A stretch of DNA of 64,000 bases from Thermoleophilia bacterium (GTDB lineage: Bacteria; Actinomycetota; Thermoleophilia; BMS3ABIN01): NCBI GenBank assembly GCA_014874175.1, contig JACWAD010000105.1:365-64364 (forward strand), read 5' to 3'. Position numbers and translations under genes: made by a program. The stretch's first letter is position 1. Every line of letters starts with the position of its first letter. Below are positions 1-60,580 of this stretch, one piece after another. The notes beneath the pieces were generated by a model. That model searched no databases. It was not told the DNA's origin and saw only the letters and a list, made by a program, of their open reading frames with translations.

Positions 1-1366
1 GAAATCCAGCATCCATCATCCGGTTAATGAATGCAGGGGCCCAGGCCGGCGATCCGAGCGCGTGCAGGTGCGCATAAGAAGCGAGCACATTGCCAAAGAT
101 AATGCCGTCATTGCCCCCCGCCAGGCCCGTGCCCCTGATGACTTCATAGGCGTACTCTTCCCTGTTCAGGGCCGTCACTTCCGAATAATGGAATTCATGA
201 CCCTTTAGCAGGGCGCCAGGTGCAAACCATCCTCCCGCTCCCGTGGTTTTCAGAGTGATGTAGCCGTGTCCACGGGGCTTTTCATGCATGGCTATGTCGC
301 AGGGAAGCGCTCCTGCCATCTCGCCGGACTTGTCTTTCCAGCTGATTTTCCTGGCCAGATACATGAGGCCGCCGCACTCGGCGTAAATAGGCATTCCGTC
401 CGCGGCCGCCTTGCGGATCTCCCGGCGCAGCAGCGCGTTGCCTTCCAGTTGCCTTAAAAACACTTCCGGGAAACCGCCGCCGATGTAGAGCCCGCATATG
501 CCAGCCGGGAGGCTGGAATCATCCAGGGGGCTGAAAGGAACCAGTTCCGCTCCTGCGGTGCGCAGAGCGTCAAGATTTTCAGGGTAGTAAAAAGTAAAGG
601 CCCGGTCCCGGGCAACACCCAGCCGCACCAGCGGCCGCGGCGTTTCAGCATCCGGGACGTCCTGTCCGGGAAAATCAGGCGCTGAGGCGGCAATTGCCAG
701 GATACGCTCCAGGTCCACGCTGTCCGAAACCGCCTTTTCGACCCGGCCGATGACCGCGGCCGAAGCCAGCGCTTCCGGGGCCGGCTCAAGCCCCAGGTGC
801 CGCATGGTGATGCTCATCTCGGCGCTGCGGCGAACGGCGCCAACTACCTCAATGTCACAGTAGCGCTCGATGACCCGGCGCAGCTTTTCCTCATGCCGGG
901 GACCGGAGACCTTGTTGAGGATGACGGCGGCGATTTTGACATCGGGCTCGAATCTGGTGAAACCCTGGATCAGGGGCGCCACGGAGCGCGTCATGTTGCG
1001 GCAGTTAATGACAAGCAGCACCGGGGCGTCCAGGGTGCGTCCCATGTCGGCAGTGCTGCCCTTTCCATCTACCTCGATGCTGTCGTAAAGCCCCATGTTG
1101 CCCTCGATCAGGGCCAGGTCGGCGCCGCGGCCGTTTGTGTAAAAAGACTGGCGGATCCGGTTTTCACCCATCATGAACAGGTCAAGATTGTGACAGTCGT
1201 GGCCGGTGGCGGCGCCCAGCCACATCGGATCAATAAAGTCCGGCCCCTTCTTGAACGGCCTCACGTCAAGCCCGCTGCGCCCAAAGGCGGAGCAGAGCCC
1301 GATGCTGAGCGTGGTTTTACCGGAGCTCCGGTGCGGAGCGGAGATTATCAGGCGGGGCAGTCTCAT
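1..1366 (-). CDS. cbiA: Cobyrinate a,c-diamide synthase (CbiA/CobB), 3' end runs off the window start
   Basis: Own translation of minus strand from ATG at 1366: MRLPRLIISAPHRSSGKTTLSIGLCSAFGRSGLDVRPFKKGPDFIDPMWL... (P-loop SGKTT, PFKKGPDFID), C-terminal glutamine amidotransferase-like region (AECGGLMYL). No stop before position 1, and not listed in the ORF track because it is incomplete. Confidence 0.85.
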   Translation of the reverse strand, partial: MRLPRLIISAPHRSSGKTTLSIGLCSAFGRSGLDVRPFKKGPDFIDPMWLGAATGHDCHNLDLFMMGENRIRQSFYTNGRGADLALIEGNMGLYDSIEVDGKGSTADMGRTLDAPVLLVINCRNMTRSVAPLIQGFTRFEPDVKIAAVILNKVSGPRHEEKLRRVIERYCDIEVVGAVRRSAEMSITMRHLGLEPAPEALASAAVIGRVEKAVSDSVDLERILAIAASAPDFPGQDVPDAETPRPLVRLGVARDRAFTFYYPENLDALRTAGAELVPFSPLDDSSLPAGICGLYIGGGFPEVFLRQLEGNALLRREIRKAAADGMPIYAECGGLMYLARKISWKDKSGEMAGALPCDIAMHEKPRGHGYITLKTTGAGGWFAPGALLKGHEFHYSEVTALNREEYAYEVIRGTGLAGGNDGIIFGNVLASYAHLHALGSPAWAPAFINRMMDAGF

Positions 1367-1373
1367 AAAAAAG

Positions 1374-1429
1374 TTCCCAGTTTCCAGTTCCAAGTTCCCA
1401 GTTTCCAGTTCCCTGTTTCCTGTCTCGCG
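1374..1429. repeat. 7-bp-period tandem repeat array (TTCCCAG TTTCCAG TTCCAAG TTCCCAG TTTCCAG TTCCCTG TTTCCTG), immediately 5' of the cbiA start. A second short array AAACGAG AAACGTT AAACGAG lies at 1441..1461.
   Basis: Direct reading: eight consecutive heptamers, including one 21-mer duplicated. The cbiA mRNA would carry GGAAACU/GGGAACU repeats right up to the AUG. Confidence 0.85.
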
Positions 1430-1486
1430 TGCATATGGTAAAACGAGAAACGTTAAACGAGTATATTTTACATGAGAGGGAGAGGA

Positions 1487-2476: not shown

Positions 2477-2512
2477 CGCGCCCGCTTCATCCTCCGCAGC
2501 AGCCCGCGAACC

Positions 2513-2607
2513 TGTTTCCGGTTTCCTGTTTATGGTTTCGGGTTCCAGATATTGGTCGTGGGCTTTGGGTTTCATTCGACATTCCCATGTCCACCATCCA
2601 CCATCCG
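2513..2607. repeat. 7-bp-period repeat array (GTTTCCG GTTTCCT GTTTATG GTTTCGG GTTCCAG ... CCACCAT CCACCAT) between the lspA stop and the rluD start
   Basis: Direct reading of the plus strand. The minus-sense RNA carries GGAAAC/CGGAAAC repeats. Confidence 0.75.
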
Positions 2608-2608
2608 C

Positions 2609-3088
2609 TTACCATTTCCACAACAGCCCTTTGACCAACAATAAGACCCCCGCCACAATGAAAGCATCGGCGAGGTTAAAGGCGGGCCAATGAGGAAGGC
2701 GGATAAAATCAGTCACGCTGCCCGACCATGCGCGATCAGCCAGGTTGCCGATGCTGCCCGCGCCCAGAAGGGCAAAAGCCCAGTTCCAGCGGCTGTCCCT
2801 GCGCAAGGCAAAGGCGGCCAGGGCCAGCAGCGCCACCACTATCGAGCTGGCAACAATTATGGCGGCCGCATGCCCCTCCAGAATGCCGAAAGCAATGCCC
2901 TGGTTGCGCACATATTCCAGGTGCAGGAAAGGCAGGATGCCGACGGACTGCTCGGGAGACATAAGGCTGCGCACAAGAACCTTGGAAACAAGATCAGCCC
3001 CCAGCAGAAGCAACAAGCGCGAAAAAAGCTTGACCGGCACTTTACGCGAATGCTGGATTTTGGATGCCGGACTCTGTATTAAACCCAA
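2609..3088 (-). CDS. lspA: Lipoprotein signal peptidase (signal peptidase II)
   Basis: 159 aa, four TM segments, conserved NxGxAFG-like motif (RNQGIAFGIL) and FNLAD motif. Adjacent to rluD. Confidence 0.9.
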   Translation of the reverse strand: MGLIQSPASKIQHSRKVPVKLFSRLLLLLGADLVSKVLVRSLMSPEQSVGILPFLHLEYVRNQGIAFGILEGHAAAIIVASSIVVALLALAAFALRRDSRWNWAFALLGAGSIGNLADRAWSGSVTDFIRLPHWPAFNLADAFIVAGVLLLVKGLLWKW

Positions 3089-3239
3089 AATGCATGCGGT
3101 TGATGCATATAAGACTAGCCTCCGGAATTGAAGCTTGCTGAATGTCCATTAAAGAACCAAAAACCTGAATAGCGTTGACCCCGGTTTATTGACCTCGATA
3201 CATAATTACGGCCCTATTTATGATTTTACCAAAGCCGCC

Positions 3240-3297
3240 ATCCAGAATCCTGTCCAGTATCCAGTATCCAGCACCTTATCCAGCATCCGGTTTACTG
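3240..3297. repeat. 7-bp-period repeat array (ATCCAGA ATCCTGT CCAGTAT CCAGTAT CCAGCAC CTTATCC AGCATCC GGTTTAC) in the lspA 5' region
   Basis: Direct reading. The minus-sense RNA has GGAU every 7 nt. Confidence 0.8.
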
Positions 3298-3696: not shown

Positions 3697-4071
3697 CTAC
3701 TTCCCACTGTCCGCTTTATTCCCTTCCAGGATGGTTTTTATCGTTGCCTGCGCGAGGGCCGGTTTGACCCCGACAAGCAGAATTGTCTTTACGCGTGAGC
3801 GCTCCCCGGAGAGAATCCTGAGACGGTTCTTTCTTATGCCCAGCCCGCGTGCCAGTAATTTAAGCAGGGCCTGGTTGGCCTTGCCCCCGACAGGAGGCGC
3901 CTGGACCCGGACCTGCAGGCATCCGCCCGCTATGCCCTTGATTTCTGATCTCTTTGCCCCGGGCACGACGCGGATTTCAAGCAGCGTCCCTTCTTCAGCC
4001 CCCTTGGCATACAAATGCATAAAGTTTAGAGTTTCGAATTTCGGGTTTAATCCACCGTCTGCATCCGCCAT
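3697..4071 (-). CDS. yggU: DUF167 / YggU-family protein
   Basis: GTLLEIRVVPGAKRSEIKG...LQVRVQAPPVGGKANQALLKLLARGLGIRKNRLRILSGERSRVK is the typical DUF167 signature. A heptad array occupies the first 17 codons, so the likely start is the internal Met at 4020. Confidence 0.8.
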   Translation of the reverse strand: MADADGGLNPKFETLNFMHLYAKGAEEGTLLEIRVVPGAKRSEIKGIAGGCLQVRVQAPPVGGKANQALLKLLARGLGIRKNRLRILSGERSRVKTILLVGVKPALAQATIKTILEGNKADSGK

Positions 4072-4082
4072 CCGCCATCTGC
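4023..4082. repeat. 7-bp-period repeat array (AGTTTAG AGTTTCG AATTTCG GGTTTAA TCCACCG TCTGCAT CCGCCAT CCGCCAT)
   Basis: Direct reading. It shares the CC(A/G)CCAT unit with the array at 2590..2607. Confidence 0.75.
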
Positions 4083-7398: not shown

Positions 7399-7424
7399 GT
7401 CCCCAGTTTCCAGTTTCCAGTTAA
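7399..7424. repeat. Short heptad array GTCCCCA GTTTCCA GTTTCCA abutting the yggS start
   Basis: Direct reading. The mRNA carries GGAAACUGGAAACUGGGGAC immediately 5' of the start. Confidence 0.7.
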
Positions 7425-7720
7425 AACATCATCTTTAACAAGCCTGGCGGGATTTTTTTCCGGAGCGGTTCGGCCTGCGGGCCACCGAAAACCGGCCTTC
7501 CACCAGGTCAAACGCCCATCAGATGCCGCTAAAACCGCAAATGAAAGCGGAGGGAAATTTCCCGGCCGGCGAAACAGCCTCCACAACCGCTATCCTCGTT
7601 TGCATCATATTAAACCCGGTTCCCAGTTCCCAATTTCAAAAACTATAACGAATATCAGCGAGTTGTCAAAGAAACATCAAGTTTTTTGGTTTTTTTCAAA
7701 GTCCATATCCAGCATTCGGT

Positions 7721-8560: not shown

Positions 8561-8601
8561 GGCGGAAAAGAAAAAACGGCCCTGCCTGCCAAATGATCGT
8601 T

Positions 8602-8646
8602 GGGTTCCGGGTTCCGGGTTCCGGGTTCCGGGTTCCGGGTTCCGGG
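8602..8646. repeat. Perfect tandem repeat (GGGTTCC)x6 between ftsZ and pgeF
   Basis: Direct reading: gggttcc repeated six times then ggg. The minus-sense RNA carries (GGAACCC)6. Confidence 0.95.
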
Positions 8647-8835
8647 AAAAAACTATACCACTATCTTACTAATTGTAAATAATGAACTGCTACGGAAGCG
8701 GAGCCTGCCGGACATCGGCAGGAAATAGGCAAACCCTTGCAAGCCCTGAGCTAATTCCTGAACGAATTGGATGAACAGTTTGGCCAAGAAAAATGTCAGC
8801 CGGCAGCCGTGAAGGCAAAACGAAAACCGCCCCGC

Positions 8836-14318: not shown

Positions 14319-14430
14319 AGTTCCAGTCCCCAGTTCCCAGTTTAAAAAATTGAATCGATTACTAACTTTTTGTCAAAACAGGTGCTTCGATATTTGAAAT
14401 TCGGCATTCGGCATTTTCATTGTCCACCAT

Positions 14431-16723: not shown

Positions 16724-18303
16724 TTCGCCTCCGCCTTTATTTGTTTTACCAGCGAGATGAAGTGATCGCCCCGCTGCTCGAAATTTTCATACTGGTCAAA
16801 ACTGGCGCAGGCAGGCGCCAGCAGGACCACATCGCCAGGGACGGCAGTCTCGGCCGCGGCCCGGACAGCATCTTCCAGGCCGTCAACCACCGTCACGGCC
16901 CTGCCAGCCTCCCTGAAATCGGCGGCTATCCGGGCGGCCGCATCCCCCATGGCAATCACTTCTTTTACCTTGCCGCCCCCAGCCGCCTGTGCCAGTTCGT
17001 TAAATGGACATCCCTTCAGGCTGCCCCCCAAGATCAGGTGAATGCCCTTGTCAAAAGCGGTTAGCGCCCCCACCGAGGCGGCTGCGTTGGTGGCCTTGGA
17101 GTCGTTGACATAGGTGACGCCGCTGACCTCGGCCACGCGCTCCAGCCGGTGCGGCACCCCGGAAAAGCTTCTCAGGCCAACTGCTACCTCTGCCGGCGAA
17201 AGCCCGGCAGAAAGGCAGACGGCCGCAGCGGCCAGCGAGTTTTCCAGGTTATGCTCGCCCTTTACCGAAGCCTCCGGCCAGTAAATAATCTTTTCAGGTC
17301 CCTCCGGTGAGTCTTCGCCGCGGGCGCGGTCTTTCCTGCCAGCACCGGCAACGGCGGCGCCGGGAGAAGCCGCCCTGAACCTGGCTTCCAGGCTGCCGGC
17401 GGCAGGCGCGAGCCTGTCCATGTCGGCATAGATCACATTTTCGCGGGCAAAAACCGCCAGCGCGGGTAAGCCGCTGCCGGACCTGCCGGCGGCGGCGCTG
17501 CTGCCAAAACCGAACCAGATGCTGCCCGCCGGCCCTGATACGGCGGCCTCCCGCACGGCGGGATCATTCGCGTTAAAAACCGCGAGATCCCCCTCCTGCT
17601 GACGCTTGAAAATTCTCATCTTGGCGGAATAATACTCCTCCAGCGTGGCATGGCGGTCCAGGTGATCCTCGCTCAGGTTGAGCAGCACTGCTATATGAGC
17701 GCGGAAATCAACAATATCCTGAAGCTGGAAGCTGGAGAGCTCTACGACAAGAATGTCGCGCTTGTCAACGACTCCCGCCAGCGACGAGAGCGCCGTGCCA
17801 ACGTTCCCTGCCACCCGGCAGCGCCAGCCGGCCCGCCTGAAAATGTGGCCGACGAGTTCGCTTGCCGTCGTCTTTCCGTTCGTGCCGGTGATGCCAATGA
17901 CAGGATTCTGCAAAAAGCGGCCGGCAAACTCGACCTCTCCCCACACGGGCAGTCCACTCCGGCGAGCCTGGCCAAGCAGCGGAATCTCCGCCGGCACCCC
18001 GGGGCTCTTTACCAGCAAGCTGCAGCCGTCCAGAAGGCTGACGTCCTCGCTTCCAAGCCTGAGCTCGACCCCGGCCGCCTCGAGCGCCGCCAGCTCCGCC
18101 GGGGAAGCAGGTTCGGCGCTGGCGTCCGAGAGCACGACCTTGACCCCGGGCAGCAGGCGGCGGGACATTAACGCCGCCGCCCTGCCTGAACGGGCGGCGC
18201 CGACAATCAGCAAAAAACCATTAAACCGGACTTTGGATTCTGGATGTTGGACCTCAGGCACCGGAAGCCCCCGTCTTTTTGTTGCTGTCATTCCGGATGA
18301 CAA
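16720..18303 (-). CDS. murD: UDP-N-acetylmuramoylalanine--D-glutamate ligase
   Basis: GITGTNGKTTASEL, Mur ligase middle and C-terminal domains. The N-terminal roughly 24 codons overlap a heptad array, so the true start is likely near 18231. Confidence 0.9.
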   Translation of the reverse strand: MSSGMTATKRRGLPVPEVQHPESKVRFNGFLLIVGAARSGRAAALMSRRLLPGVKVVLSDASAEPASPAELAALEAAGVELRLGSEDVSLLDGCSLLVKSPGVPAEIPLLGQARRSGLPVWGEVEFAGRFLQNPVIGITGTNGKTTASELVGHIFRRAGWRCRVAGNVGTALSSLAGVVDKRDILVVELSSFQLQDIVDFRAHIAVLLNLSEDHLDRHATLEEYYSAKMRIFKRQQEGDLAVFNANDPAVREAAVSGPAGSIWFGFGSSAAAGRSGSGLPALAVFARENVIYADMDRLAPAAGSLEARFRAASPGAAVAGAGRKDRARGEDSPEGPEKIIYWPEASVKGEHNLENSLAAAAVCLSAGLSPAEVAVGLRSFSGVPHRLERVAEVSGVTYVNDSKATNAAASVGALTAFDKGIHLILGGSLKGCPFNELAQAAGGGKVKEVIAMGDAAARIAADFREAGRAVTVVDGLEDAVRAAAETAVPGDVVLLAPACASFDQYENFEQRGDHFISLVKQIKAEAN

Positions 18304-18352
18304 GCTTTTGGTTTATCCAAGATCCAAAATCCATGGTTCAACATCCGTTTTT
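18226..18352. repeat. Paired heptad arrays in inverted orientation (GGACTTT GGATTCT GGATGTT GGACC ... GGTTTAT CCAAGAT CCAAAAT CCATGGT TCAACAT CC) flanking a central palindrome GTCATTCCGGATGAC, in the mraY-murD spacer
   Basis: Direct reading. The left arm carries GGA every 7 bp and the right arm TCC every 7 bp, so the arms are imperfect inverted repeats. Confidence 0.7.
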
Positions 18353-24889: not shown

Positions 24890-25062
24890 ACAAAACAAGC
24901 CTCTGACGGCAAAAAAATAGGGGATTTTACCTAAATTCAAGAGGAATAATCCTGGAAATCAGGCCTGGCGGGGTAATCCAGGAGGAAACAGCCTGGGGAA
25001 GAAACCGCTTTTCGTTTCACCAAATCCGGGAAACGCCAAACGTTAAACGTTAAATTAAAAGA

Positions 25063-25783: not shown

Positions 25784-26392
25784 ATGAAAAAATCGGTTAT
25801 GGGTTATCCGGCATCCAGAATCCGTATCCAGCTTATGGACTATACGCTTCTTCATTTGATTAACCAGATGGCAGGCCATGTCTCCGCGGTCGACAGCTTC
25901 TTTTCGCTGGTGGCCAAGTACGGCCCGGCGCTTTATGCCATTCCTCTGCTTTTCATGTGGTTTCGCGGCGGCGACAGCGCCAAGAAGGCAGCCCTGCTCA
26001 GCTTGGCTACCATGGCCGTAGCCCTGTTGATATCACAGGTAATCGGCCATATTTATTTCCGTCCCCGGCCTTATGACGCCCATCCCGGAGGGGTCAACCT
26101 GATCATTCCCAGATCCAGTGACGCCTCCTTCCCTTCGGATCACGCCACCTTCTCATTTGCCATTGCCGGGGTGATCCTGCTGGAGGACCGCCGGTGGGGC
26201 ATCGCTGCTGTGGCGCTGGGCGCCCTCGTCGCTTTTGCGCGCGTTTTTGTCGGCATCCATTATCCCCTGGACGTCGCCGGCGGAGCCGTGCTGGGGCTGG
26301 CGACAGGGGTGCTGATGTGGCAGCTGCGCAGGGTCTTTGATCCGCTGCTTAGGTTCCTGATCAGCATCGCCAGGCGGTTGAAGCTGGCATAG
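25784..26392 (+). CDS. PAP2-family phosphatase (undecaprenyl-diphosphatase-like)
   Basis: PAP2 motifs (SFPSDHAT, RVFVGIHYPLDV). The first 17 codons overlap a heptad array, so the likely start is the internal Met at 25835. Confidence 0.75.
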   Translation: MKKSVMGYPASRIRIQLMDYTLLHLINQMAGHVSAVDSFFSLVAKYGPALYAIPLLFMWFRGGDSAKKAALLSLATMAVALLISQVIGHIYFRPRPYDAHPGGVNLIIPRSSDASFPSDHATFSFAIAGVILLEDRRWGIAAVALGALVAFARVFVGIHYPLDVAGGAVLGLATGVLMWQLRRVFDPLLRFLISIARRLKLA

Positions 26393-30837: not shown

Positions 30838-31239
30838 TTAATCGTTATCATTCGCGTTTTTGACACGCTCAGTAATGGCGCTTACGACTTCCGCCCACCT
30901 TGCCCCCTCCGTGGCGCTCACCCGGGTGTAATGGAACCGCTCGGGATTAATGCCCAGCGCCGGCAGCATTCTTTTCAGCAGCTCCAGGCGGCGGCGGGCG
31001 AAATAATTGCCGCTGCCATAATGGCAGTCTCCCGGATGGCAGCCGCTTACCAGGACGCCGTCAGCCCCCTCCTGAAAAGCCCTCAGAACCAGCAGGGGAT
31101 CCACCCGGCCGGAGCAGGGCACCCTGATTATGCGCACGCCCGCCGGTTGTCTCATTCTTGACATTCCGGCCATGTCGGCGCCGGCGTAGGAACACCAATT
31201 GCACAGAAAACCAATTATCCTTGTTGTGGGTTCAGTCAT
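30838..31239 (-). CDS. MvhD-like (methyl-viologen-reducing hydrogenase delta / FlxD) protein
   Basis: CNWCSY...VPCSGRV...GCHPGDCHY is diagnostic of MvhD. Confidence 0.85.
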   Translation of the reverse strand: MTEPTTRIIGFLCNWCSYAGADMAGMSRMRQPAGVRIIRVPCSGRVDPLLVLRAFQEGADGVLVSGCHPGDCHYGSGNYFARRRLELLKRMLPALGINPERFHYTRVSATEGARWAEVVSAITERVKNANDND

Positions 31240-31247
31240 AAAACGGT

Positions 31248-31290
31248 CCCAGCATCCAGTATCCAGTATCCAGTATCCAGTATCCAGTAT
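31248..31290. repeat. Tandem repeat (CCAGTAT)x5 preceded by a degenerate copy. A second heptad array (CATCCAG AATTTGG CTTATCC AAAATCC AAAGTCC GATATCC AACGTCC GGTTTTA) lies at 31335..31395.
   Basis: Direct reading. The minus-sense RNA carries (GGAUACU)5 immediately 5' of the mvhD start. Confidence 0.95.
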
Positions 31291-31352
31291 CGAAAAGAAT
31301 ATGGCAACTATATACTATTTGTCAAAAAGACAGCCTGCATCCAGAATTTGGC

Positions 31353-33341
31353 TTATCCAAAATCCAAAGTCCGATATCCAACGTCCGGTTTTAGTACTTC
31401 CACTATTTCCGCAATCAACTCCTTGTCAGTAAAGCCATTAAGTGATATTGCCCCCGGGGGGCAGGCGACGTTGCAGATGCCACAGCCGCGGCAGACTGAC
31501 CCAATCACCCGCGCAACAGGCCGGCCGTCTGGCAGGCGCGCTTTTTCGACAGCCCCGAAGGGGCAGACGCCCCGGCATTTAAAACAGCCGGCGCATCTTG
31601 ATTCCGTGACTGCCGCCACCATGGGACTGGCCTCGAGCTCGCCGCGCGCAAGCATCCCTATCACCTTGGCGGCTGCGGCGCCGGCGTGCGCTACCGTGGC
31701 GGGGATGTCCTTGGGGCCCTGGCAGGCCCCCGCCAGAAAGACGCCGGCGGAGGCCGCCTCCACAGGCCTGAGCTTCGGGTGCTCCTCGGTCATGAAACCG
31801 TTCCGGTCACAAGCTATGTTTAACTTGCGGGCCAGCTCCCCTGCGCCGGCTGAGGCGTCAAGGCCGGTGGCCAGCACAACCAGGTCCGCTTCGATCTCCA
31901 CCTGGTCGCCAGCCAGCGTATCGGTCCCCATCACCACCAGTTTTCCCCGCCGCGGAAAAATCTTCCCCACGCGGCCCCGGATGAAGAGGGTTCCGTACCG
32001 CGTTTGGGCGCGGCGGGCAAATTCTTCATAGTCCTTGCCGCCGGCGCGCATGTCCATGTAAAAAACATACGCCTGCGAGTCAGGGATGTGCTCCCTGGTG
32101 AGCACTGCCTGCTTGGCCGTGTACATGCAGCCCACGCTGCAGCATTGCGGCCGCCCCACCGACTCGTCCCGCGACCCGACGCAGGAGACAAACACAACCT
32201 GCCGGGGCTCGGCCCCGTCCGACGGCCGCCTGATCCGCCCGCCCGTGGGGCCGGAAGCAGACAGCAGCCGCTCGTATTGAAGGGAAGTAACCACATCTGG
32301 GTACATTCCCATGCCGTAGGTGGGATAGGAGGCTTTCCAATCATAATGATCGTAGCCGGTGGCGGCGACAATGGCGCCAAAACTGCGCCTGAGGACCGCC
32401 TCCTCCTGCCCGTAATCAATGGCGCCAGCCGGGCAGAGCTTCTGGCAGAGGCGGCATTTGTTGCCGTTAAAGCGGCGGCAGTGCTCCTTGCGCAGGCTGG
32501 CAATCAGCGGCACGGCTTGGGGAAAAGCAATGGAGATGGCCTTGGAGCTTCCCAAGCCGGCATTGAAATCGTCCGGCGCCCGGGCGGGGCACTTATCCTG
32601 GCAGATCATGCAGCCGGTGCATTTTTCTTCATCGACACAGGTGGATTTCCGGCGAATGTCAACCTCGAAATTTCCGGCATAACCATGAACGTCATCAACC
32701 TCGGAATTTACCAGCAGCTCGATGTTCTCGTGCTGCTTGACCTCCACCATCAGCGGCGCCAGGATGCACGAGGAGCAGTCCAGAGTCGGAAATGTCTTGT
32801 CCAGGCGCGCCATGTTTCCCCCGATGCTGGGGCTCCTTTCCACCATGGTCACGGGGATGCCGGCGGCGGCGATATCCAGCGCCGCCTGGATGCCGGCGAT
32901 GCCGCCGCCAATGACAAGGGCCCGCCTGACCGCCGCTGTTTTGCGGGCCAGAAGCGGCGTATGATGGCGCACACGCGCAACGGCCTTGCGCGCCAGGTCA
33001 GTGGCCTTCCGGGTGGCCTCGCTAGCATCTGAATGAATCCAGGAGCATTGCTCGCGGATATTGACCATCTCCAGCATAAAAGGGTTCAGGCCGGCGCGCT
33101 CAAGCGCCCGCCTGAAAGTGGCCTCGTGCATGCGCGGCGAGCAGGCGGCTATAACGACGCGGTCCAGACGCTTCCCGCGGATGGCTTCTGCAATGGTGGC
33201 TTGGCCCGGGTCGGAGCAGGTGTACTGAATGCTCTCGGCAACGGCGACGCCGCGCATGGCGGCCGCTGCCGCCGCCACCTTGCCGGTGTCAACCGTGGCG
33301 CTGATATTGGTGCCGCACTGGCAGATGAAAAATCCGATCAT
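31353..33341 (-). CDS. hdrA: Heterodisulfide reductase subunit A-like flavoprotein
   Basis: 662 aa. FAD dinucleotide fold ALVIGGGIAGIQAA, multiple 4Fe-4S motifs (CTGCMICQDKCP, CAGCFKCRGVCPFG, CRGCGICNVACP), N-terminal Cys-rich domain. Confidence 0.9.
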   Translation of the reverse strand: MIGFFICQCGTNISATVDTGKVAAAAAAMRGVAVAESIQYTCSDPGQATIAEAIRGKRLDRVVIAACSPRMHEATFRRALERAGLNPFMLEMVNIREQCSWIHSDASEATRKATDLARKAVARVRHHTPLLARKTAAVRRALVIGGGIAGIQAALDIAAAGIPVTMVERSPSIGGNMARLDKTFPTLDCSSCILAPLMVEVKQHENIELLVNSEVDDVHGYAGNFEVDIRRKSTCVDEEKCTGCMICQDKCPARAPDDFNAGLGSSKAISIAFPQAVPLIASLRKEHCRRFNGNKCRLCQKLCPAGAIDYGQEEAVLRRSFGAIVAATGYDHYDWKASYPTYGMGMYPDVVTSLQYERLLSASGPTGGRIRRPSDGAEPRQVVFVSCVGSRDESVGRPQCCSVGCMYTAKQAVLTREHIPDSQAYVFYMDMRAGGKDYEEFARRAQTRYGTLFIRGRVGKIFPRRGKLVVMGTDTLAGDQVEIEADLVVLATGLDASAGAGELARKLNIACDRNGFMTEEHPKLRPVEAASAGVFLAGACQGPKDIPATVAHAGAAAAKVIGMLARGELEASPMVAAVTESRCAGCFKCRGVCPFGAVEKARLPDGRPVARVIGSVCRGCGICNVACPPGAISLNGFTDKELIAEIVEVLKPDVGYRTLDFG

Positions 33342-34766: not shown

Positions 34767-35081
34767 AAATACGCGGTCTCCAGATGCTGGATGTTGGGTT
34801 TTGGAAAAACACTGTTCACCGAATTCTCCGCTTCGGCATCCCTGCGGGATGATCAGTAATCCGAACAACCCTGCCTGGCAATCATTGCTGTTTGCGTCAA
34901 CAGCGCCCTCAGCGGGCATTATGCGCACAGCTAAAAAACCAATAGCCCAGGACATTATCCTCAGCCACCCGGATAAGGTCCTGAGCTATCTTGCCTGCTG
35001 CCGTCTGGCCCGCAGGCAAAAAAAGGCTGCCTTCAAACTTTGTGAATGTTTTAACAGCTTAAGGGATTTTAACAGCACCGC

Positions 35082-38199: not shown

Positions 38200-38232
38200 G
38201 CAAAAACCCAGTTTCGGGTTTCGGGTTCGGCT

Positions 38233-41788: not shown

Positions 41789-42108
41789 TCTCCTTAAAGT
41801 TCAAGATTGTGAGTTCCAAGTTCAGAGCTGTGAGCCAAATAGTTGTGAGCCAAATGTTTTTTCTTTAAACTTTGAACTTTGAATTAAAAAAACCACGGGC
41901 TTATACGCTCCCGTGGCTGCTCTAGGCTTAAGGCTCAAAATCCGCGCTTTTCCGGTCCGGCAACGGGCCGTTATTTTCTGTTTGCCAGCCGGATTTAATA
42001 ACAGGAATGCCGCAGATTCTCAGCCTCAGGCCTAGAGTTGGAGCTTTCCATGCTCGGCAGCGTTACGCCGGGTTGCGCCAAGAAGGTTTCTGAAAAGAAC
42101 CGCCCGCA

Positions 42109-42378
42109 TTATTTCCTCAGGCCCAGCTCCTTGACCAGGGCGCGGTAGCGGGTCACTTCCTTGTTTTGCAGATAGGTAAGCAAGCGGCGCCTTTTCCCCA
42201 CCATCTTCAACAATCCTCTGCGGGAGTGGTGATCCTTCTTGTGCGTCTTCAGGTGCTCCGTGAGGCCGTTGATGCGCTCTGTCAGAAGTGCTATCTGGAC
42301 TTCCGGAGAACCGGTATCACCCTCGTGGCTACTGAATTTCTCAATAACCTGGCCCTTGTTTTCCCTGCTTAAAGTCAA
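42109..42378 (-). CDS. rpsO: 30S ribosomal protein S15
   Basis: 89 aa, [26 protein letters not shown] is the S15 signature. Confidence 0.97.
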
Positions 42379-42628
42379 TCCTTCACCTCCTCCCCAACCT
42401 GATTATTGCTTTGATGTGGCGGGTCGCCGTCACACAGGTACCGGCCCTGCGCGTCTCAAATGCCTTCCAAAGCTTACCACACTTTGGCTTTTTTTGGATA
42501 ACGGACAATCTTAAAGTCACTAATTCCACCTTTATTAATTAAAAAAAATGCCGATGAGAAATCCTGCCCGGCGTACATCGTGGCAAAAAGAATAAACTCA
42601 TGGCAAGTTACGCCACGGGGAGGCGAGC

Positions 42629-59182: not shown

Positions 59183-59324
59183 GCACCATGCGCAAAAAAA
59201 ACTTTCAAATAATTTTATAAGTTAAAGCGGCGCCGGGTAAACCTATTAAACCGGCCACCGGATTCACGGCTAATCAAGAAAAGCGATGCGGATGCCAAAG
59301 GCTCCCGAGGGAGCCTTTGGCCTG

Positions 59325-59760
59325 GCAGGCCCGTAAGCCGGATTCTGTTCTATGCGGCCATCTATCTGGGAAGCGCGTTGCCGCGCCACTCAAGCGGTCT
59401 ACCCGAGGGCCGGGCGAGCAACCCGAATCCACCCTCCTATTTGACCTTGCACCGGGTGGGGTTTACCTGGCAGACGTGTCACCACGCCTCCGGTGCGCTC
59501 TTACCGCACCATTTCACCCTTGCCAGCAGACGCTGCAAGCGGGTCCGGAACTGAAATCATTCCGGGCCCTTGCTTCACGCCAGGCGGGCGGTTTGCTTTC
59601 TGTGGCACTTGCCTGCGGGTTTCCCCGACTGGGCGTTACCCAGCACCCTGCTCTTTGGTGTCCGGACTTTCCTCCCCGCCGTTTTATTCCCCAGGGACAT
59701 GATGGATGCGGAGCATCCTCGTGTCCCTGGTCAAAGGCATTTCCCGGCGGTATTCTGACT
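59325..59760 (-). ncRNA. rnpB: RNase P RNA, bacterial type A
   Basis: Minus strand contains GGGGAGGAAAGUCCGGACACCAAAGAGCAGGGUGCUGGGUAACGCCCAGU, AGUGCCACAGAAAGCAAACCGCC, GGUAAGGGUGAAAUGGUGCGGUAAGAGCGCACC, GGUAAACCCCACCCGGUGCAAGGUCAAAUAGG, GGGUAGACCGCUUGAG and ACAGAAUCCGGCUUA. These match the universally conserved P4/P10-12/P15-18 regions of type A RNase P RNA. The exact 5' and 3' ends are uncertain by a few tens of nt. Confidence 0.85.
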
Positions 59761-60049
59761 CCGCAAAAAAGGGGAGCCGAAAAAAGGCGGGGCGGCCGCT
59801 CGGCCTGCAATCTGATTTTATCAACAACCCGGCGCAAATGCCTGAAGATTGCGAAGTGTCCCTCACTGTTCAGTCGTAAAAAATATGACATCTCCCATCA
59901 GCTCAAATGAATTTTATTTCACTACCAATTGGAACCCTGCAGGAACTTTCAAGCGTCCAAGTCAATGACTTGAAGAAAACAGCCAAAACAGCCGATAAAT
60001 AAACAAAAGCAATTGTTTATCAAAAAAGTCTTGAAGGGAGCTGGGAAGA

Positions 60050-60325: not shown

Positions 60326-60492
60326 GCGCCTCTTACATTCATCAGAAGCTGCCGGGAATCCCCCATCCGTAACATGCCGGCCTTCCCGGCCCGACCGCGC
60401 TCCGGCGGCTCTGCTATAATTCTTTCAGCCGGCGGCTCATGGTTTTTGGGGTTCCCAACATCCAAAATCCGATGTCCAGAGTCCGGCTGTTC

Positions 60493-60580
60493 GTCGGAGT
60501 GGCGGAACTGGTAGACGCGCTAGGTTGAGGGCCTAGTGAGGGATAACCTCATGGGGGTTCAAGTCCCCCCTCCGACACCA
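60493..60580 (+). tRNA. tRNA-Leu (anticodon GAG), CCA encoded
   Basis: Acceptor stem GTCGGAG/CTCCGAC, D-arm, anticodon stem CTAGG/CCTAG with loop TTGAGGG (anticodon GAG), long variable arm, T-arm GGGGGTTCAAGTCCCCC, discriminator A plus CCA. Confidence 0.9.

Follow-up and report, generated by a model that had tools for sequence, protein, structure and literature searches.

Heptanucleotide arrays in bacteria and in the window

That heptamer repeats are over-represented in the intergenic DNA of bacteria was recognised as early as 1990; they have no established function to date. Cyanobacterial short tandemly repeated repetitive (STRR) heptamers such as CCCCAGT, equivalent to GGGGACT, were reportedly described by Mazel et al. 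in 1990. Here we examined tandem arrays of 7-nt units in a 64,000-nucleotide stretch of DNA from a Thermoleophilia bacterium (contig JACWAD010000105.1), referred to below as the window, with the array between the genes hdrA and mvhD as the focal site. The arrays very probably belong to the class of heptanucleotide simple sequence repeats that takes in the cyanobacterial STRR, the Xanthomonas GGGAATC and Nostoc GGGGA(C/T)T repeats and the TAACTGA repeats of Beggiatoaceae, and they are an unusually ordered new form of this known and unexplained class. The lineage offers an unusually tidy case, with unit families tied to position, a promoter-like cassette that is always followed by an array, orthologous loci that differ in unit, copy number and orientation, and an outgroup free of arrays.

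The GGGAATC arrays of Xanthomonas and the GGGGA(C/T)T arrays of Nostoc PCC 7120 are ∼90% intergenic, lie near the 3′ end of the upstream open reading frame (ORF), are transcribed and frequently form inverted pairs; repeats of GGGAATC and GGGGAYT form G-quadruplexes (G4) in vitro, and their function is given as unknown (Rehm et al. 2015, PMC4692102). The arrays of the window resemble them in their tandem GG(G/A)A-N-Y-N heptads, their heterogeneity, their intergenic position near the 3′ end of the upstream ORF, their inverted pairs and housekeeping neighbours, and their recurrence in the same intergenic regions of sister species, where length and sequence vary. However, the Xanthomonas and Nostoc repeats have no orientation preference, their inverted pairs are convergent, and they consist mostly of G3-4 tracts and form G4, whereas most arrays here have GG only; four or more G3 tracts occur in the window only in (GGGTTCC)6 at 8602-8646. 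The promoter cassette and position-specific unit families found here have not been reported there. For Nostoc, a preprint describes altered reporter output after deletion of a heptamer array.

In marine Beggiatoaceae, forward TAACTGA arrays lie over the ribosome-binding site (RBS) and replace the Shine-Dalgarno (SD) sequence; S1, cold-shock proteins (Csp) and CsrA were considered as binding proteins, of which CsrA was judged unlikely on motif and spacing, known CsrA sites being wider apart (MacGregor 2015, PMC4679880). The likeness to our arrays lies in forward heptamers (2-6 copies there) placed over the RBS a few nt from the start codon and in downstream genes that share no functional theme, and a canonical SD is rare in the TAACTGA intergenic regions. 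The start-proximal units here are different ones (GGAAACU, GGGAACU, GGAUACU, GGAACCC and CCGAAAC). TAACTGA has no GGA, contains two stop codons and forms a single family, and neither a promoter cassette nor arrays after stop codons or ahead of promoters have been described with it. GGGGACU and GGGAACU of the window are the STRR1 unit of cyanobacteria or one base off, but the cyanobacterial arrays are frequently much longer and, among the matches listed, lack a bias toward ORF starts. Geobacter metallireducens also has multicopy heptad arrays, in 49 elements of four tandem GGACCGG heptanucleotides for which a global regulatory role was proposed (Aklujkar et al. 2009, PMC2700814); these differ from ours in their fixed four copies, which sit inside a longer conserved element that is also found within genes.

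Tandem repeats were called with Tandem Repeats Finder (TRF) and a separate period scan, and counts of GGA-N4-GGA-N4-GGA were compared with 100 shuffles. Start codons were refined by comparison of N-termini with those of relatives, and Pfam bore out the gene names. Seven was the dominant tandem-repeat period of the window, with 11 arrays versus 0-3 for periods 5, 6 and 8-12; TRF and the period scan together gave ∼15 head-to-tail 7-nt arrays of 2.4-6.6 copies each. GGA recurred at period 7 in 21 matches in 11 arrays, where 0.58 were expected and the shuffle maximum was 3, compared with 4 matches at period 6 (0.71 expected from shuffles) and none at period 8 (0.79 expected). Strict period-7 arrays numbered 11 in 4.5 kb of intergenic DNA versus 2 in 59.5 kb of coding DNA, that is 2.44 versus 0.034 per kb or a ∼70-fold difference, and one of the two “coding” arrays sits upstream of the probable true yggU start. 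A preliminary description of this DNA had pointed to GGA heptads upstream of mvhD (GGAUACU ×5, within the array that we place at 31246-31291 on the minus strand) and of other genes, and by the count of 21 against 0.58 this pattern is indeed non-random.

The hdrA-mvhD site and the recurring layout

The focal site contains the following features.

30838..31239, minus strand: mvhD (FlpD domain, by Pfam)
31246..31291, minus strand: mvhD leader array, GAUACUG ×5, then GAUGCUG, GGAC, CGUUUU and the mvhD AUG at 31239
31292..31325, minus strand: promoter-like cassette before the mvhD array, TTGACA, 16-nt spacer AATAGTATATAGTTGC, (TG)CATATT, CTTTTC
31353..31387, minus strand: HdrA-tail array, GGAYNNN ×5, coding for the last 10 HdrA residues and the stop codon
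31353..33341, minus strand: hdrA (by Pfam)

Read in the GGA register, the mvhD array is GGAUACU ×5, GGAUGCU and GGGACCG, then UUUU-AUG. Its 5′ edge lies 7 nt past the predicted −10 box and its 3′ edge 6 nt ahead of the ATG at 31239. The TTGACA-16-(TG)CATATT cassette at 31325-31298 is among the best sigma70-like matches of that 19-kb stretch. An ORF on the plus strand (31199-31432) runs across the mvhD leader, but its G+C content at third codon positions is only 0.35, compared with ∼0.7 in real genes, which marks it as non-coding. The 10-residue C-terminal tail of HdrA, KPDVGYRTLDFG before the stop codon, is encoded by heptads, and three relatives terminate at VLR; judging from this comparison, the sequence at 31353-31387 is a heptad array absorbed into the hdrA reading frame. 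GGAU arrays likewise lie within the last codons of murG, rluD and cobB in relative 1 (L124).

Two relatives were compared with the window: relative 1, comprising L124 and L128 (the latter from GCA_027334495.1), and relative 2, comprising L126 and L129 (a single ENA contig). Both are fully syntenic with the window at ∼80% nucleotide identity, and their arrays occupy the same intergenic regions but differ in unit and copy number; the dominant unit is GGAACTC in both relatives and GGRAACT in the window. The hdrA-mvhD gap itself differs by species, holding a promoter and a direct array in the window and an inverted pair without promoter in both relatives. In a more distant genome (L130, GCA_027334925.1; HdrA 74% identical), which is syntenic and has short intergenic regions, this gap is 13 nt. 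We found no heptad arrays in L130, and SD-like motifs (AGGA, GGAG) stand at its mqnC, hdrC and pnp. Copy number was constant at 7 arrays in three Logan assemblies of the same strain (99.96-100% identical, no indels), which come from consecutively numbered runs and may represent one population; one Logan contig terminates within (GGGTTCC)6.

Across the three species the arrays follow a recurring order in gene sense: the stop codon, (GGAUNNU)n 2-20 nt later, (CCCRAAA)n, the promoter-like cassette, a T-run, a GGAAC-type array and the start codon. The post-stop array is mostly (GGAUGNU)n, frequently ending in GGAUUAAA, and the pre-promoter array is (CCCAAAA/CCCGAAA)n. The cassette is sigma70-like, of the form cTTGACAAATAGAAAATAatc-n-CATAAT, with the T-run after it, and the leader unit that follows, (GGAACUC), (GGAAACU) or similar, is repeated from ∼7 nt past the −10 box. 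Each of these unit families keeps to its position, and their order is the same in at least 10 intergenic regions across the three species. A strict pattern of cassette plus T-run had 8 matches in 149.5 kb, against 0.53 in shuffles of whole sequences and 0.15 in shuffles of intergenic segments. All 8 lie between genes and read in gene sense, each with a 16-nt spacer and an array immediately behind it. In a general promoter scan of the gene strand, the three cassettes of the window ranked at or near the top, and the best-scoring sites were precisely the ones that precede arrays. The cassette was absent from 240 heptad loci of other lineages among the matches listed.

The usual distance from −10 box to +1 is 6-8 nt and the −10 box of the cassette lies ∼7 nt upstream of the array, so that the array would begin at the 5′ end of the transcript. 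From these predicted promoters, which stand directly before four arrays, we infer that the arrays are transcribed from +1 and form the leader. The preliminary description had placed the arrays in 5′ untranslated regions, and the promoter-like sites agree with this at the level of inference. Other arrays (lspA-rluD, divIVA-yggU, mraY-murD and M16-mqnC) lie inside operons without any promoter. A complete module of post-stop array, C/A array, promoter and leader array occurs between ftsQ and ftsA in L124 (4838-4965) and L126 (4301-4487). The two genes abut in the window (∼11271) without a module there, and whole modules are, on this comparison, gained or lost between species.

To place the repeat class more widely, GTDB genomes were scanned for GGRRACT ×3 and metagenomes for (GGAACTC)3; these loci inform on the repeat class and not on this lineage. 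Among the matches listed, GGRRACT ×3 was found mainly in Nostocales and also in Desulfonema, Acidobacteria, Chloroflexi and others. The unit (GGAACTC)3 was found on at least 120 metagenomic contigs (L131-L250) of 35-73% GC. Among the matches listed, 32 of 113 metagenomic arrays had an antisense GTTCC/GTTTC heptad array within 110 nt upstream, as against 5 of 125 on the downstream side. By crude ORF calls on the same listed matches, an ORF start lay ≤50 nt downstream in 38 sense versus 19 antisense cases, and an ORF stop abutted the antisense side in 25 versus 6. The polarity of antisense after the stop and sense before the start thus seems to reach well beyond this clade.

Orientation and competing explanations

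Orientations were read by hand, an array being counted as sense when its GGA/GAAAC strand is in gene sense. Start-proximal arrays were sense versus antisense in 8 versus 3 cases in the window, 8 versus 0 in L124, 7 versus 1 in L126, 5 versus 1 in L128 and 4 versus 2 in L129. The total for the window and the two relatives is ∼32 sense versus 7 antisense; these are orthologous loci, so the independent cases are ∼15 sense and 3-4 antisense. Orientation is kept at each locus while units change; wherever a species has an array at hdrC or hdrA, it is antisense. The GGA strand is thus mostly, not universally, in gene sense, as had been proposed, and the exceptions already named, hdrC (UCC) and mqnC (CCGAAAC), are correct; the murD leader, on the UCC strand, is an exception that had been missed.

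A sense array comes within 0-12 nt of the start codon at cobB (also called cbiA), yggU, yggS, murC, mvhD and mqnC. The earlier statement that arrays run right up to the start codon is confirmed, exactly or nearly, for these genes, the mqnC array (CCGAAAC) having no GGA; at two other genes the array ends further off. The pgeF array stops 45 nt short, with a hairpin and a U-run between array and start, and the rluD array ∼42 nt short, with a real GGAGGA in between. Two more genes had been listed in error. At lspA the start-proximal array (3050-3086) presents UCC, and the sense array (3238-3289) lies ∼165 nt upstream. The dksA-like gene has no upstream array at all, being separated from yggU by a 12-nt gap, and the array at 3238-3289 follows its stop codon.

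Folding of the leaders gave no sign of GGA presented in loops. Single arrays showed no more structure than their shuffled versions did (mvhD leader, z +0.6 and an open centroid; pgeF and murC, z +0.3 each). Where an antisense array is followed by a sense array, a long hairpin results: −45 kcal/mol and z −2.6 for the mraY-murD pair of the window, z −3.6 for the M16-mqnC pair of L129, and a perfect 16-bp stem with z −6.5 for the hdrA-mvhD pair of L129.

The whole explanation that we prefer, tentatively, combines the known heptamer class, the stereotyped layout and a leader or standby mechanism. The mechanism by itself, although we favour it, is somewhat less likely than not: sense arrays may be structure-poor, weakly SD-like leaders on which ribosomes load (standby sites). 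Transcribed from +1, they would make up almost the entire leader; unfolded and without start or stop codons, they would offer a partial SD of 3-5 nt (GGA, GGGA, GGGGA) every 7 nt in place of the canonical SD, and would serve as open ribosome-loading leaders and length-adjustable spacers. An antisense copy upstream of a sense copy would give a long intercistronic hairpin that sequesters the leader or marks an RNA-processing or stabilising site. In the window the last unit often turns to GGGA or GGGGA 7-8 nt before the start (cobB, mvhD, murC). If this reading is true, core genes of cell division, cofactor synthesis and energy metabolism use the arrays as a natural device for ribosome loading that is tunable and independent of an SD.

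Several observations weigh against ribosome-loading leaders. The last GGA lies anywhere between 1 and 16 nt ahead of the start codon, and the UCC strand stands directly before the start at hdrC, murD, lspA and, in the relatives, hdrA; because these leaders carry UCC, a GGA-based ribosome contact is no general requirement. The likeness to reiterated SD or standby sites noted in the preliminary description is plausible. Array-led starts have no GGAG/GAGG core, and their predicted anti-SD duplex energies (−3.5 to −4.3 kcal/mol) did not differ significantly from those of other genes (p 0.35, with many start calls uncertain). Orientation and replication strand are, moreover, intertwined within the window, where almost every gene lies on the minus strand and this is also the G-rich strand. 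The few cases that separate gene from strand disagree. An array in L129 past the stop codon of an opposite-strand PAP2 gene is in PAP2 sense and thus tracks the gene, the array at 60441-60486 is antisense to a plus-strand tRNA-Leu and thus tracks the strand, and the hdrB-hdrA arrays, antisense though on the common strand, track neither. Beyond the lineage, 120 GTDB loci, mostly of Nostocales, showed no bias toward ORF starts (19 sense versus 23 antisense in a crude test, among the matches listed), and the Xanthomonas heptamers lack an orientation preference, with 30-35% per strand (Rehm et al. 2015, PMC4692102). Finally, the post-stop and pre-promoter arrays are unexplained by a leader function.

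Among the alternatives, it is rather unlikely, and yet to be taken seriously, that the arrays are neutral by-products of replication slippage, to which 7-nt units would be especially prone, surviving in intergenic DNA where they are harmless; strand-asymmetric mutation would then account for orientation and placement, together with purifying selection against start and stop codons and against structure near the RBS. Turnover of units and copy numbers between relatives at 80% identity is fast, entire modules are present or absent (ftsQ-ftsA in L124 and L126 but not in the window), an array has been taken into frame as the C-terminal extension of HdrA, both orientations are found, and the orientation rich in G is that of the G-rich strand, all of which slippage accommodates. 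It accounts less readily for the stereotyped placement (2-20 nt past the stop, from the predicted +1, abutting the start), for the position-specific unit families, whose order is constant over at least 10 intergenic regions in the three species, for a promoter cassette that always has an array next to it, for the conservation of orientation at a locus despite unit change, and for the polarity of the inverted pairs, whose antisense partner was upstream in 32 and downstream in 5 cases among the matches listed. Were the arrays neutral, they would provide a benchmark for the order attainable by mutation and purifying selection alone.

A reader protein is a less probable explanation still. The arrays would be operators of an oligomeric RNA- or single-strand-binding protein, with one unit per subunit, forming a lineage-wide post-transcriptional regulon; candidates are a HutP-like or TRAP-like ring, or an OB-fold (oligonucleotide/oligosaccharide-binding) protein of cold-shock or S1 type with a ∼7-nt footprint. 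HutP and TRAP operators consist of triplets with short fixed spacers that are read by ring oligomers, and the HutP period is 7 nt (NAG-N4). Our arrays share with them a short core at a fixed short period on unstructured RNA, but those operators serve one or few loci through attenuation, whereas here there are dozens of loci and several unit families. The register of exactly 7 nt, the conserved core (GGAAC, GAAAC or GGAU) among otherwise variable positions, the single dominant unit across many loci of a genome, the near-identical unit on metagenomic contigs of 35-73% GC and the accessibility of the unstructured RNA would all suit such a protein, and for the TAACTGA arrays Csp, S1 and Csr have been put forward (MacGregor 2015, PMC4679880). 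Against it, several unit families and both orientations would demand several readers, and the downstream genes are ordinary housekeeping genes without a functional theme. No HutP, TRAP or CsrA homologue was found by tblastn, which covered 170 kb from the clade and thus only a small part of each genome. It is improbable, as a stronger version, that the three heptad families (GGAUNNU post-stop, CCCRAAA pre-promoter, GGAACNN from +1 to start) are operators of a lineage-wide system whose protein or proteins have a 7-nt register. Such an undescribed, SD-independent system, acting on translation or RNA stability, would possibly be widespread, because near-identical (GGAACTC)n arrays of the same polarity occur in many unrelated metagenomic lineages.

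We attach a similarly low probability to a role at the DNA level, in which the arrays flank promoters (UP-like A-tracts in CCCAAAA, an initial-transcribed-region effect of GGAAC) or form non-B structures (G4, i-motif or cruciform) that tune transcription or insulate genes. Arrays do lie on both sides of a conserved promoter, inverted pairs are present, at least four G3 tracts occur in (GGGTTCC)6 and in the (GGGTTTT)/(CGGGTTT) strands of the L124 CCCRAAA arrays, and repeats of GGGAATC and GGGGAYT form G4 in vitro (Rehm et al. 2015, PMC4692102). However, GGAUACU, GGAAACU, GGAACUC and GGAUGCU have neither G3 nor C3 tracts, many arrays inside operons have no promoter, and units repeated every 7 bp do not stay in phase with the turns of the DNA helix.

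The preliminary description had favoured CsrA/RsmA-type regulators, for which the GGA arrays would be multivalent sites competing with the ribosome at the start codon. A csrA gene is not known as a feature of Actinobacteria. We consider this explanation very improbable indeed, even though GGA repeats reach the ribosome-binding region of at least six genes and bear a superficial likeness to the multi-GGA decoys of CsrB/RsmZ type. The spacing is 7 nt whereas known sites are wider apart (MacGregor 2015, PMC4679880), and in the unstructured arrays GGA lies outside hairpin loops, unlike the stem-loop display of CsrA sites. Equivalent arrays are free of GGA, namely (CGAAACG)6 in L126 and (CCGAAAC)3 at mqnC; several leaders carry the antisense UCC strand; and GGAU heptads also stand past stop codons and upstream of promoters. 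A search for csrA homologues had been suggested as a check; with CsrA of E. coli and B. subtilis as queries, tblastn over the 170 kb detected none, its hits being no better than E 0.7, which is weak evidence because the 170 kb are a fragment of each genome.

Two further candidates were ruled out: G4 as a general explanation, as most units have no G3 tracts, and phase-variable contingency repeats, as the arrays lie past the −10 box or outside promoters and ORFs and the genes are housekeeping genes. Conceivably, the post-stop GGAUG units might form mini-ORFs (AUG CUG GAU UAA) and the CCCRAAA arrays might be loading sites for Rho, two ideas that we do not advance as claims.

Array catalogue and neighbouring features

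The other arrays of the window are listed below in order of coordinates.

1..21, minus strand: array at the 3′ end of cobB, GGAU ×3
1372..1420, minus strand: cobB/cbiA leader array, GGAAACU/GGGAACU ×7, then UUUUUU-AUG
1439..1459, plus strand: GUUU-type (antisense) array upstream of the cobB array, with the GAAAC strand on plus
2511..2608, minus strand: lspA-rluD intergenic region, (GGAUGGU)n, AACCCAAAGCCC, (GGAAACN)n, with the probable rluD start ∼42 nt onward
3050..3086, plus strand: GGAU array and AUUAAACCC on the plus strand, so that the lspA leader is UCC
3238..3289, minus strand: GGAUNCU array right after the stop codon of the dksA-like gene
4021..4081, minus strand: divIVA-yggU, (GGAUGGC)n, GGAUUAAACCCGAAA, UUCGAAA and CUCUAAA up to the probable yggU ATG
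7399..7422, minus strand: yggS leader array, GGAAACU GGAAACU GGGGAC, abutting UUG
7615..7719, minus strand: complete module after pgeF, GAAUGCU-GGAUAUG array, A/C-rich stretch, TTGACA-16-TATAGT, TTTT, GGGAACU array
8602..8679, minus strand: pgeF promoter-like site TTTACA-16-TATAGT, then (GGAACCC)6
14319..14430, minus strand: murG-murC module, post-stop GCCGAAU ×2, TTGACA-type promoter-like site, T-run, GGGAACU GGGGACU GGAACU abutting UUG
18226..18255, plus strand: GGAY array on the plus strand, so that the murD leader is UCC; 3′ arm of a hairpin (z −2.6)
18304..18347, minus strand: GGAU-type array after the mraY stop codon; 5′ arm of the long hairpin
25026..25054, plus strand: (UUUAACG)n on the minus strand directly past the stop codon of a TPR gene, with the GAAAC-type strand on plus
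25803..25823, minus strand: GGAU ×3 array where the TPR and PAP2 genes diverge
34778..34804, plus strand: hdrC leader CCAAAAC CCAACAU CCAGCAU (UCC strand), with the GGA strand on plus
38207..38231, minus strand: mqnC leader array (CCGAAAC)3, without GGA
41797..41883, minus strand: pnp leader, (UUCAAAG)3 and degenerate GAACUUG/GGAACUC heptads before a real AAGGAG
60441..60486, minus strand: GGAY ×4 and AACCCCAAAAACC, between a TATAAT-like box and the plus-strand tRNA-Leu(GAG) (region 60441-60580), antisense to the tRNA

The precursor of tRNA-Leu(GAG) would contain the UCC/GGGUU strand of the module at 60441-60486. In the pgeF leader, a GGCAGGC...GCCUGCC-type hairpin with a U-run lies between array and start in the window (8561-8601), L124 (7549-7594) and L126 (7002-7046), and this conserved hairpin looks like an attenuator or terminator. 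Between the two leader arrays upstream of yggS there are ∼200 nt of non-repetitive DNA (7440-7615), in which tblastn revealed no remnant of a gene for a 209-aa CxxCxxCC-domain protein that occupies the corresponding site in L126. A search against Rfam 15 matched only RNase P RNA and tRNA-Leu in the window, with no array matched at the gathering score, and matched nothing in L124, L126, L128 or L129. A dispersed repeat of ∼160 nt, absent from the window, occurs in intergenic DNA of the relatives in both orientations, in copies 76-90% identical (L128 8181-8341, 15305-15466 and 18526-18666; L129 18501-18621).

By searches with ProC and HdrA, the next-closest named homologues come from metagenome-assembled genomes of Actinobacteria and Thermoleophilia. 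Past the point that corresponds to the left end of the window, the relatives have a dsrM-like gene that resembles nitrate reductase gamma, then dsrC, a dsrK-like gene for a Fer4 protein and dsrA (L124 17221-20807, L126 16481-20807). These dsr genes adjoin cobB in both relatives, and this gene content suggests a sulfite- or sulfate-reducing lineage. The dcw cluster includes divIVA, sepF and yggT. A class A bacterial RNase P RNA occupies 59322-59729 on the minus strand (260 bits), and the long plus-strand ORF at 59317-59910 is therefore spurious. The same holds for the plus-strand ORF at 42239-42514, because rpsO lies on the minus strand at ∼42105-42374; within the minus-strand region 41884-42374, rpsO is followed by a terminator-like site with a stem and U7, GCCACGGGAGCGUAUAAGCCCGUGGUUUUUUU, just upstream of the pnp leader heptads.

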